Source: Bacilli bacterium (GTDB lineage Bacteria > Bacillota_I > Bacilli_A > RF39 > UBA660). From it: a stretch of 64,000 nt of DNA. Positions 18,153 to 45,186 of the stretch are shown here, one piece after another. Below the pieces are notes generated by a model. The model was given only the letters and a program-made list of their open reading frames with translations, had not been told where the DNA came from and made no database searches. The stretch's first letter is position 1, and the number at the start of each line of letters is the position of its first letter. Location of the stretch: assembly GCA_045627525.1 (NCBI GenBank), contig JAZQNW010000011.1, forward strand, positions 4,549 through 68,548, in the 5' to 3' direction. Position numbers and translations under genes: made by a program.

Positions 18153-18360
18153 CAAGTGCGAAAGACGTAATATTAATTAATTTGTAGAGAGCTTGTGGAT
18201 GGTGAAAACAAGTATGAAATTAATATTAAGATCACTTTCAAGTTGTGATTTATGGATAAGATAAATACGGTAACGCGTTATAGTTATAAGTGTATAAGTT
18301 TTCTTATAAATTAAGGTGGTACCGCGAACTATTCGTCCTTATAGGCGAGTAGTTTTTTTT
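18153..18360 (+). promoter_or_regulatory. T-box riboswitch (Ile) with canonical terminator
   Basis: AGAGA bulge and GGTG loop, specifier ATC at 18231-18233, T-box AAGGTGGTACCGCG 18313-18326, terminator ACTATTCGTC/GGCGAGTAGT plus T-tract. Confidence 0.93.
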
Positions 18361-36399: not shown

Positions 36400-37140
36400 A
36401 TGAAAATAGAAAATTTTGAAGGATTAGTATTAAGTGAAACTAATTATAGTGAATCAAGTAAAATTTTAAATGTTTTTACTAAGGAATATGGTCTTATTGG
36501 AATTATGTCTAAAGGTTGTCGTGGTGTAAAAAGTAAACTACGAGGTGTTAGCAGGAAACTCATTTATGGTAAATTTCATGTCTATTATAAGGAAAATGGT
36601 TTATCTACTTTAATTAGTGTTGATTTGATTAATTCTTATTCCAATACGTTAATGGATTTAGAAAGAGTTAGTTATGCTTCTTTTTTGATTGATTTAGTTC
36701 TTCAAGTGGTAAGACAAAATGCTAATTCCGAGATTTTTGATTTAATAATTAGTACCTTAGATAAAATAGATACTGGTCTTAGTCCTATTGCGTTATCAAA
36801 TATTTTAGAATTAAAATTACTAGATTATTTAGGAGTTAAACCCTGTATAGATTGTTGCAGTAAATGTGGAAGCGATAAAGCAATTGTTACTTTATCTAGT
36901 GATAGTGGCGGATACGTTTGTAAGAATTGTTATCAAAATGAGGGACTAGTTAGTGATAAAACAATAAAAATGATTAGAATGTATTATTATGTTGATATAA
37001 AAAATATTACTAAATTAGATGTTTCTTCAGAGGTTACAAAGGAAATAAATATGTTTTTAGATGATTATTATGAAAGATATACTGGACTATATTTAAAAAG
37101 TAAAAATTTTATTAAGAAAATTCAAAAATTATCTTCATAA
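36400..37140 (+). CDS. recO: DNA repair protein RecO
   Basis: NYSESSKIL..FTKEYG, C4 zinc finger CSKC/CKNC. Confidence 0.94.
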   Translation: MKIENFEGLVLSETNYSESSKILNVFTKEYGLIGIMSKGCRGVKSKLRGVSRKLIYGKFHVYYKENGLSTLISVDLINSYSNTLMDLERVSYASFLIDLVLQVVRQNANSEIFDLIISTLDKIDTGLSPIALSNILELKLLDYLGVKPCIDCCSKCGSDKAIVTLSSDSGGYVCKNCYQNEGLVSDKTIKMIRMYYYVDIKNITKLDVSSEVTKEINMFLDDYYERYTGLYLKSKNFIKKIQKLSS

Positions 37141-37153
37141 TATTATTTATGAC

Positions 37154-37181
37154 TTGACATAAAAATAATTAAAAGTATAAT
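37154..37181 (+). promoter_or_regulatory. Sigma-A promoter of glyQS leader
   Basis: TTGACA(37154-37159)-16 nt-TATAAT(37176-37181). Confidence 0.7.
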
Positions 37182-37189
37182 AATACTTA

Positions 37190-37318
37190 TATGTGTGATG
37201 ACTGAGGCGGAAACTCACGAGCAGTATAAAACAAAGATGATTCTTCTAGAATAAATAAGGTGGAACCGCGCAATAATATTTCGTCCTTACATATTCTAGA
37301 ATTTTTTTATTATAAGGA
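37190..37318 (+). promoter_or_regulatory. Atypical short T-box riboswitch (Gly)
   Basis: T-box AAGGTGGAACCGCG 37257-37270 with TTCGTCCTT partner; mini stem TGAG-GCGGAAA-CTCA containing Gly codons; upstream of glyQS. Confidence 0.8.
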
Positions 37319-37326
37319 GTGATAAT

Positions 37327-38697
37327 ATGGAAAAAATGACAATGGAAAAGTTAGTTAATTATTGTAAACAATATGGTTTTATATTTCAAGGAAGTGAAAT
37401 ATATGGTGGATTAGCAAATACTTGGGATTATGGACCATTAGGATCAAGATTAAAAAATAATATTAAAGATTCATGGAGAAAAAGGTTTATTCAAGAAAGA
37501 CCAAATGCTTATGAAGTAGATGCTGCCATCCTTATGCATCCTAGAGTATGGGAAGCTAGTGGTCATGTTGGTAGTTTTTCAGATCCTCTTGCTGATTGTA
37601 AGTCATGTAAAACAAGACATCGTATTGATAATTTAATAAATGATTTTTCTAATTCATCAATTGGTGATGCAATGAGTAATGAAGAAAGATATAAATATTT
37701 AATTGATAATAAAGTACCATGCCCAAATTGTGGAAAAACAGATTTTACTGAAATTAGAGAGTTTAATCTTATGTTTGAAACTCAAAGAGGTGTAGTAAAA
37801 GATGCTAAAAGTACAATCTATTTAAGACCAGAAAATGCTCAAGGTGAATATGTTAATTTCTTAAATGTTCAAAGAAGCATGAGAGCAAAGTTACCATTTT
37901 CAATAGGGCAAATTGGTAAAGCTTTTAGAAATGAAATTACTCCAGGAAATTTTACTTTTAGAACAATTGAATTTGAACAAATGGAATATCAAACTTTCTG
38001 TAAGGAAGGATCTGATAGTGATTTATATGATTATTTTAAAGAGTATGCTAAAAAATATTTTATGGATTTAGGTATAAGCGAAGAAAAGCTAAGATATCAT
38101 AATCATGAAAAATTAGCTCATTATGCAAAAGAAGCTTGTGATATTGAATATAAATTTAATTTTGGATGGGGCGAAATAAATGGTACTCATAATCGTACAA
38201 ATTACGATTTAAGTCGTCACCAAGAATTTTCTGGAACTTCTCAAGAATATTTAGATCCAGAAACAAATGAAAAATTTATACCATATATTATTGAATCTAC
38301 CGTAGGTTGTGATAGAGCAGTATTAGCAGTTCTTGACAATAGTTATTGTGAAGAAGAATTAGAAGATGGTACAACTCGTGAAGTTATGAAATTTCATCCA
38401 GCAATTGCACCATATAAGGTAACTGTATTACCATTAGCTAAAAAATATCATAGTGAAAAAGCAATGGAAATATATAATATGTTAAGCAAATATTTTATGG
38501 CAAGTTATGATGAAACTGGAAGTATTGGTAAACGTTATAGAAGAAGTGATGCTGTAGGAACACCATGGTGTATAACAATCGATGATGAAACTATTAATAA
38601 TAATACAGTAACAATTAGAGATAGAGATACAATGGAACAAGTTGTATTGAAAGTAGACGAATTAGTATCATATATCGAAAGTAAAATCAATTTTTAG
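37327..38697 (+). CDS. glyQS: Glycine--tRNA ligase (alpha2 type)
   Basis: YGGLANTWDYGPLG, YLRPENAQG, FRNEITP, GINGTHNRT-like motif 3 region, anticodon-binding domain SIGKRYRR. Confidence 0.96.
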   Translation: MEKMTMEKLVNYCKQYGFIFQGSEIYGGLANTWDYGPLGSRLKNNIKDSWRKRFIQERPNAYEVDAAILMHPRVWEASGHVGSFSDPLADCKSCKTRHRIDNLINDFSNSSIGDAMSNEERYKYLIDNKVPCPNCGKTDFTEIREFNLMFETQRGVVKDAKSTIYLRPENAQGEYVNFLNVQRSMRAKLPFSIGQIGKAFRNEITPGNFTFRTIEFEQMEYQTFCKEGSDSDLYDYFKEYAKKYFMDLGISEEKLRYHNHEKLAHYAKEACDIEYKFNFGWGEINGTHNRTNYDLSRHQEFSGTSQEYLDPETNEKFIPYIIESTVGCDRAVLAVLDNSYCEEELEDGTTREVMKFHPAIAPYKVTVLPLAKKYHSEKAMEIYNMLSKYFMASYDETGSIGKRYRRSDAVGTPWCITIDDETINNNTVTIRDRDTMEQVVLKVDELVSYIESKINF

Positions 38698-44964: not shown

Positions 44965-45174
44965 TCGATGTTGATTAAGGAGTAGTAGTAATTGATGCTT
45001 CTAAAGAGAGCTTGTGGTTGGTGCAAACAAGTGAAGATAAATTATGAATTCGCCTTAGGAGTTCTTATTAATAGTAAGCGTAGCTCGCGTTAAGAGTTTT
45101 AAGTGTATAGTAATAACTATAAAATAAGGTGGTACCGCGAATATTCGTCCTTATATTTATAGTTATTTTTTTTT
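44965..45174 (+). promoter_or_regulatory. T-box riboswitch (Phe)
   Basis: AGAGAG/GGTG stem I motifs, specifier TTC 45049-45051, T-box AAGGTGGTACCGCG 45126-45139. Confidence 0.92.
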
Positions 45175-45186
45175 AAGGTGGTGACT

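Follow-up and report, generated by a model that had tools for sequence, protein, structure and literature searches.

A family-wide glycine T-box leader with an ultrashort Stem I and a predicted terminator in small-genome uncultured Bacilli

In current models of T-box riboswitches (2020 and 2024 reviews), the terminator type needs a long Stem I, and a short Stem I needs Stem II together with a pseudoknot. According to the reviews, transcriptional T-boxes require the IDTM or long Stem I for fast tRNA capture. Ultrashort Stem I's belong to translational T-boxes, and a truncated Stem I shows hardly any tRNA binding unless Stem II is present (PMC7583486). The ultrashort type is that of actinobacterial ileS leaders (Sherwood et al. 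2015, as cited in PMC7583486), in which, according to a 2024 paper, Stem II together with Stem IIA/B makes up for the missing elbow contact. In glycine T-boxes, Stem II can be dispensable, which has been explained by the strong pairing of GGC with GCC (PMC7583486). A 2024 survey of glycyl T-boxes reported no truncated Stem I. A conserved, covarying leader that lacks both a long Stem I and Stem II with its pseudoknot puts to the test how small a sensor of uncharged tRNA can be.

Here, we describe such a leader upstream of glyS in a window of 64,000 nt from a Bacilli bacterium (the window is the whole stretch of contig JAZQNW010000011.1 that was analyzed, and all positions are counted from its first letter). 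A sequence-only reading of the window had proposed an ultrashort Stem I with an apical Gly specifier at this locus, and the element proved to be real, conserved, and covarying. The leader is a family-wide, strongly constrained T-box variant whose decoding domain is cut to a K-turn hairpin. A small hairpin displays the Gly codon at its tip, and neither of the known tRNA-holding parts (the long Stem I platform and Stem II) is present. Judging from sequence, the leader is probably a functional glycine T-box riboswitch that attenuates transcription, and its decoding domain would be the smallest yet seen on a T-box of the terminator type. Our literature search, with several key T-box papers beyond its reach, returned no prior description of this variant.

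Architecture of the glyS leader

The glyS leader RNA is about 120 nt long in total. The locus reads recO, promoter, K-turn hairpin, linker, Stem III, T-box, terminator, Shine-Dalgarno sequence (SD), and glyS, with the upstream neighbor recO (RecO_N and RecO_C domains) ending at 37140. Its features are listed below with the basis of each in parentheses. Counts out of 57 here and below refer to distinct sequences from relatives, the window's own included.

37154-37181, + strand: sigma-70-type promoter, TTGACA (37154-59), 16-nt spacer, TATAAT (37176-81) (12/12 match)
37187-37229, + strand: whole ultrashort Stem I, 43 nt, with outer A-U helix, K-turn, upper helix, and apical specifier loop (fold and covariation)
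37187-37192, + strand: 5' strand of the outer helix, pairing with 37224-37229; G37193 is bulged (fold)
37194-37201, + strand: bulged strand of the K-turn, with C-stem UGU 37194-96, bulge GAU 37197-99, and GA 37200-01 (GAUGA in 55/57)
37203-37206, + strand: 5' strand of the upper helix, UGAG, pairing with CUCA 37214-37217 (covariation)
37207-37213, + strand: 7-nt apical specifier loop GCGGAAA, with specifier GGA 37209-37211 and next purine A37212 (conservation)
37214-37223, + strand: 3' strand of the upper helix, CUCA, then C37218, K-turn GA 37219-20, and C-stem GCA 37221-23 (fold, covariation)
37230-37239, + strand: single-stranded linker of 10 nt, ending in the purine string AGAUG (RRRxG motif) 37235-37239 (RRRxG-like in relatives)
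37240-37252, + strand: Stem III hairpin AUUCU-UCU-AGAAU, then AA 37253-54 (99% paired, helix 4)
37256-37289, + strand: antiterminator, with A1 37256-60 pairing with 37285-89, bulge UGGAACC 37261-67, and A2 GCG 37268-70 pairing with CGU 37282-84 (Rfam alignment)
37292-37308, + strand: predicted terminator 3' arm 37292-37301, pairing with 37244-37253 (Stem III region), then U-tract 37302-37308 (fold)
37314-37319, + strand: Shine-Dalgarno sequence AAGGAG (sequence)
37327-38697, + strand: glyS open reading frame, dimeric glycine--tRNA ligase (NCBIfam NF003211, 622 bits)

The positions that the sequence-only reading gave for the parts of the leader all held on re-inspection, apart from an alternative GGC specifier that is discussed below. 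Its spacing between the -10 box and the T-box came out the same, with 75 nt between TATAAT (37176-37181) and the T-box sequence AAGGUGGAACCGCG (37257-37270), over which the Rfam alignment has high posterior probability. The mini hairpin that it had drawn (UGAG 37203-06, loop 37207-13, CUCA 37214-17) was confirmed, and all four pairs of this upper helix are altered on both sides, in 15 to 25 sequences each. Below the hairpin, the tandem G-A pairs of the K-turn join 37200-01 with 37219-20, and the C-stem, which pairs 37194-96 with 37221-23, covaries from U-A to A-U in 14 sequences. By sequence, the base of Stem I thus carries the K-turn (GA motif) of T-boxes, and an apical specifier loop on a short K-turn stem is the arrangement of the actinobacterial ultrashort type. 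The A-U-rich outer helix (helix 1), at the predicted 5' end of the transcript, is the least well supported of the helices, with 81% of cells paired. The leader has no long Stem I: the AG bulge and distal loop that make up the IDTM elbow platform are missing, and neither AGAGA nor GGUGxAA occurs in it. The genome (94.4% complete) gave no match to the L7Ae family of K-turn proteins (Pfam Ribosomal_L7Ae, PF01248), and yet the glyS leader, at least, depends on a conserved K-turn.

Where Stem II with its S-turn, along with the pseudoknot of Stem IIA/B, might be expected, only 10 nt (37230-39) run from Stem I to Stem III. The distance from the C-stem to Stem III is 14 to 17 nt in 54 of the 57 sequences, too short for Stem II or Stem IIA/B. 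Apart from the modeled helices, an all-against-all scan of column pairs in the 57-sequence alignment returned only terminator pairs and one additional pair that extends A1. It found no extra covarying helix or pseudoknot, and a hidden Stem II or pseudoknot was rejected. The discriminator is canonical. Its RRRxG motif (as defined in the T-box literature; PMC7583486), Stem III, and AA occupy 37235-37254 (AGAUG ... AA) and are conserved in relatives, with AA after Stem III in 56/57. The predicted energy of Stem III alone is -1.2 kcal/mol. Between A1 and A2, which covary, lies the 7-nt UGGNACC bulge of T-boxes in the form UGGAACC, invariant in 57/57.

The predicted terminator is a helix of 10 bp, A-U rich and followed by U7, and the U-tract follows the helix in relatives. 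Predicted energies were -17.8 kcal/mol for the terminator form and -6.8 kcal/mol for the antiterminator form (a difference of about 11), and a terminator that encloses the antiterminator was the MFE topology in 55 of the 57 sequences. In the canonical platform, the 5' strand of the terminator comes from the 3' strands of A1/A2. Here, no complement of those strands (37279-37289) was found downstream, and the sole helix adjacent to the U-tract encloses an intact A1-bulge-A2. In the modeled folds, mutual exclusion is between the terminator and Stem III instead of between the terminator and A1/A2. Such a terminator would be workable as a switch, since Stem III and its purine string are required for the discriminator to bind tRNA (PMC7583486). 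We found no SD-sequestering platform, as the helix and U7 (37292-37308) end before the SD (37314-19). Sequestration of the SD by UCCUUA (37284-89) was also considered but given no weight, as every A1 3' strand looks like an anti-SD and the terminator stops short of the SD. Elsewhere in the window, the Phe leader (45106-45180) is wired in the same way: its terminator joins the Stem III region to the stretch preceding the U-tract, with the antiterminator enclosed. The Ile leader (18315-18360) has a canonical competing terminator, so both wirings coexist in one genome.

Conservation and distribution of the short leader

We collected glyS loci from relatives and built a covariance model (R1) from 27 short leaders, taken from the AT-rich pattern matches described below. 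A covariance-model comparison was the check that the sequence-only reading had suggested, and the window leader scored 120.7 bits with R1 (E = 1e-25 in the genome). The window's family, a group of small-genome uncultured Bacilli, was sampled with 151 genomes from 86 genera, and R1 matched about 110 of these genomes with at least 65 bits; this and the other distribution figures apply to the sampled groups. The short leader is a trait of the whole family and not a peculiarity of one genome. In the covariation alignment (60 sequences, 57 distinct rows), which was fitted to our own model, standard pairs filled 95.1% of cells, and 19 of 26 pairs were altered on both sides. None of 500 shuffles reached the observed covariation, a statistic that related sequences inflate, and partners slid out of register were paired in 37 to 51%.

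We also scanned species genomes for a short K-turn hairpin followed by GGUGGAACCGC. Leaving the window's own genome aside, the exact pattern occurred in 15 of 49 family genomes and in none of 351 genomes from 30 other families of the class, and a reversed-pattern control gave no matches in 401 and 301 genomes. At least 100 of the matches listed in the scan of species genomes lie in GC-rich stretches (GC content of at least 0.45) and are mostly apparent chance matches in coding sequence. Many AT-rich ones among the matches listed have the same architecture as the window's leader; they come from MAGs labeled "Bacilli bacterium," "Mycoplasma sp. CAG:472," and "uncultured Erysipelotrichaceae."

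Five family members (L199 to L203) lacked a model match and had no T-box within 1.3 kb upstream of glyS, which indicates that the leader was repeatedly lost within the family; in L199, glyS directly follows recO. Another genome (G174) carries two full-length short Gly leaders (C2:479-598 and C5:7510-7629; 104.7 and 96.7 bits). The position relative to glyS also varies. In the window's genome, the leader stands immediately before glyS (37309-37327) with no intervening open reading frame. In most relatives of the same genus (L002, L003, L023, and L062), it lies 0.6 to 0.9 kb upstream, and an extra open reading frame comes first. This frame encodes either a protein of about 250 amino acids with no Pfam match (MKIIGIKYLNE...) or a 176-amino-acid LOG/"Lysine_decarbox" protein (PF03641).

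With the Rfam T-box model (RF00230), a permissive scan gave the glyS leader 33.9 bits against a gathering score of 93. The alignment covered Stem III and the T-box only, with 87 Stem I model positions deleted. None of 17 short-leader loci reached the gathering score, compared with 102.5 bits for a long-stem glyS leader (L011) from a sister family. The contrast that the sequence-only reading had drawn with the window's Ile and Phe leaders was borne out: these scored 97.6 and 127.7 bits and contain the AGAGA and GGUGxAA motifs that the glyS leader lacks. Throughout the 1.15-Mb genome, AG-bulge-like and distal-loop-like motifs lie 87 to 135 nt upstream of each of the eight other T-box cores, and the glyS leader has none. 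In building TBDB, sequences under 100 nt were removed, and the class II model was run on Actinobacteria and on class I matches with a truncated Stem I. If the leader is responsive to tRNA-Gly, standard searches (RF00230 gathering score, TBDB length filter, and Actinobacteria-only class II model) miss a group of T-boxes in uncultured gut bacteria.

Specifier, predicted mechanism, and alternative explanations

The central triplet of the apical loop was GGA in 48 and GGC in 9 of the 57 distinct sequences, and no other triplet occurred there. The sequence-only reading had offered GGA at 37209-37211 as the Gly codon, and this choice agrees with all 57. Its alternative, GGC at 37206-08, was rejected, as G37206 is paired and the columns vary among relatives. 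The base before the specifier is U in 56/57 and the base after it a purine in 57/57. The single exception at the former position is the window's own copy, with C37208, which may bind tRNA-Gly more weakly if the -1 U pairs with A37. The codon lies 6 to 8 nt after the 5' K-turn G-A pair and 6 to 7 nt before the 3' G-A pair (7 +/- 1 nt). As in other T-boxes, the specifier is followed by a purine and agrees with the regulated gene, here a glycine--tRNA ligase.

The genome has two tRNA-Gly genes, with anticodons UCC and GCC. Both have U73 (end ...CCGC-U-CCA), the discriminator base that complements the UGGA bulge. GGA, which is among the two most used Gly codons in this genome, exactly matches tRNA-Gly(UCC), and GGC exactly matches tRNA-Gly(GCC), the change from A to C at the third position being synonymous. 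The agreement extends to the neighboring bases: the anticodon loop of tRNA-Gly(UCC), CUUCCAA, is complementary to UGGAA and that of tRNA-Gly(GCC), UUGCCAA, to UGGCA. In most relatives, UGGAA could form five pairs with U33-A37 rather than three.

From what is known of T-boxes, we infer a transcript start, a mode of termination, and a response to tRNA for this leader as follows. The apical loop would pair with the anticodon of tRNA-Gly(UCC) in a loop-loop contact that resembles one between anticodon stem-loops and that may reach 5 bp (UGGAA with U33-A37) in most relatives. The K-turn and the linker of 14 to 17 nt would aim the discriminator (RRRxG, Stem III, AA, A1, UGGAACC, and A2) at the acceptor end. 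The 3'-UCCA of an uncharged tRNA would then pair with UGGA and lock Stem III and the purines onto the heteroduplex. The arm at 37292-37301 would thereby be kept from invading Stem III, and RNA polymerase would read into glyS. With charged tRNA or none, the terminator, predicted to be more stable by about 11 kcal/mol, would win. All of this would take place without an elbow (IDTM) contact and without support from Stem II. Given the published requirement for the IDTM, and for Stem II when Stem I is truncated, the leader should bind tRNA weakly unless this is compensated. The GGA:UCC pair is also weaker than the GGC:GCC pair that has been invoked for glycine T-boxes without Stem II, which counts against our best explanation, as do the A-U-rich terminator helix, the C before the codon in the window's own copy, and the fitting of the covariation alignment to our own model. 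On balance, we still lean toward the view that a co-transcriptional T-box needs only a kissing contact with the anticodon loop (possibly of 5 bp: U-1:A37, GGA:UCC, and A+1:U33) and the contact between acceptor end and discriminator, that the elbow platform and Stem II are dispensable for glycine, and that the reduction arose more than once.

The sequence-only reading itself had noted that its proposal would fall if transcription started further upstream and supplied a full Stem I. Read-through from recO could produce such a transcript, as there is no terminator-like site between recO and the leader and read-through transcripts may exist. A full-length Stem I from upstream sequence is scarcely credible all the same and was rejected. 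The promoter ends 15 nt upstream of the K-turn, and transcription is predicted to start at about 37188-37189, roughly 8 nt before the K-turn; only 48 nt separate this position from the stop of recO at 37140, which leaves no room for a full Stem I. Neither the Rfam alignment nor the motif comparison found AG-bulge or distal-loop motifs upstream of the leader. Of the 57 sequences, 48 retain a promoter that agrees at 10 or more of the 12 positions, and in 34 of these 48, the -10 box ends 14 to 15 nt before the K-turn, a spacing that persists while the upstream genes vary. It is also quite improbable that the hairpin is a 5' stabilizer or plain K-turn hairpin with a structural loop that reads no anticodon, leaving only the discriminator to sense tRNA 3' ends. 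Hairpins protect mRNAs at their 5' ends, and this one does lie at the extreme 5' end of the predicted transcript; GGAA closed by U-A fits a GNRA tetraloop. Nine of the 57 loops, however, have GGC followed by A or G, which is not GNRA and is still a Gly codon, and no other third base occurs; a change from A to C at that position is barred in GNRA, and this removes the tetraloop alternative. The constant position of the codon relative to the K-turn and the collinear alignment of the loop with the specifier in glyS T-boxes of the long-stem type also argue against a structural role, and UGGA on its own would accept any tRNA with U73.

A T-box in decay is another reading that the evidence makes highly improbable. 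The genome is small and reduced, and five members of the family have no T-box before glyS, as might be expected if the leader were the relic of a full glyS T-box that had lost regulation and left a leaky terminator. Yet the leader persists across the 86 genera sampled, where every helix shows compensatory changes and the functional nucleotides do not vary, and a relic would not retain covariation. We regard it as rather unlikely that the T-box works through an unseen factor, such as a K-turn- or tRNA-binding protein or a slow or pausing RNA polymerase, that replaces the elbow and Stem II contacts where the RNA alone is insufficient. The strict conservation of the K-turn and the barely detectable tRNA binding of short Stem I alone in the literature speak for such a factor. 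The lack of an L7Ae-family protein in the 94.4% complete genome and of a conserved partner gene beside the leader, whose flanking genes vary among relatives, speaks against it, though only as absence of evidence. If the leader responds to tRNA-Gly, it defines a minimal natural tRNA sensor of about 100 to 120 nt, a small and tractable RNA for kinetics, structure, and engineered tRNA-responsive switches.

Origin and comparison with known T-boxes

Long-stem glyS T-boxes occur in sister families of the class (L011, L029, and L030). In a local alignment, L011 and a short leader are collinear from the specifier (GGAAC...GAGC) via the linker, Stem III, and T-box to the terminator. As the collinearity begins at the codon, the short form looks like a long glyS T-box that lacks the specifier loop's 5' side and all that lies distal to it. 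The sequences point to an origin that is most likely a loss of distal Stem I, independent of the actinobacterial ileS leaders; this origin is drawn from distribution and collinearity and not from a tree. It favors the independent evolution of a minimal T-box that the sequence-only reading had proposed. In support of this proposal, the leader is collinear with the long-stem glyS T-box of one sister family, the pattern turned up in the window's family alone out of 31 families of the class, and, unlike the actinobacterial type, the leader has no Stem II or pseudoknot and a terminator in place of an SD-sequestering helix.

Short K-turn hairpins with U-GGC-purine loops also precede glyS in at least two Clostridia MAGs (L073/L204, 1163-1286; L206), where they are followed by canonical terminators. 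These may be independent reductions, and with them, reduction appears to be recurrent for glycine. Two further Clostridia pattern matches (L208 and L211) were rejected, as both are long-stem leaders in which the pattern fell on the specifier loop's 3' side.

The glyQS, glyQ, and glyS T-boxes of Bacillus subtilis, Geobacillus kaustophilus, and Oceanobacillus iheyensis (RF00230) share with the short leader a Gly specifier followed by a purine, a K-turn at the base of Stem I, a short linker without Stem II or Stem IIA/B, the RRRxG-Stem III-AA arrangement, UGGA for U73, and an intrinsic terminator. They differ from it in several respects. The codon of the short leader lies in a 7-nt hairpin loop. 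Its specifier is mostly GGA, for tRNA-Gly(UCC), whereas theirs is GGC. Its predicted terminator recruits the Stem III region for pairing, with A1/A2 enclosed, whereas theirs uses the A1/A2 3' strands. The translational ileS T-boxes of Actinobacteria (Mycobacterium smegmatis, Mycobacterium tuberculosis, and Nocardia farcinica) resemble the short leader in having a short K-turn Stem I with an apical specifier and no IDTM. Those leaders, from another phylum, bind tRNA in dependence on Stem II as well as on the pseudoknot of Stem IIA/B, sequester the SD, and read tRNA-Ile with AUC, whereas the leader described here has a 10-nt linker in place of Stem II, a terminator with a U-tract, and a specifier for glycine.

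Outside T-boxes, tRNAs with complementary anticodons form anticodon-anticodon (loop-loop) complexes. The apical loop resembles an anticodon loop in its 7 nt and in the three stacked bases that follow a U and precede a purine, a likeness that is one of resemblance only. In the leader, unlike in such complexes, one partner would be an mRNA hairpin set on a K-turn, and the contact would be coupled to the sensing of the acceptor end.
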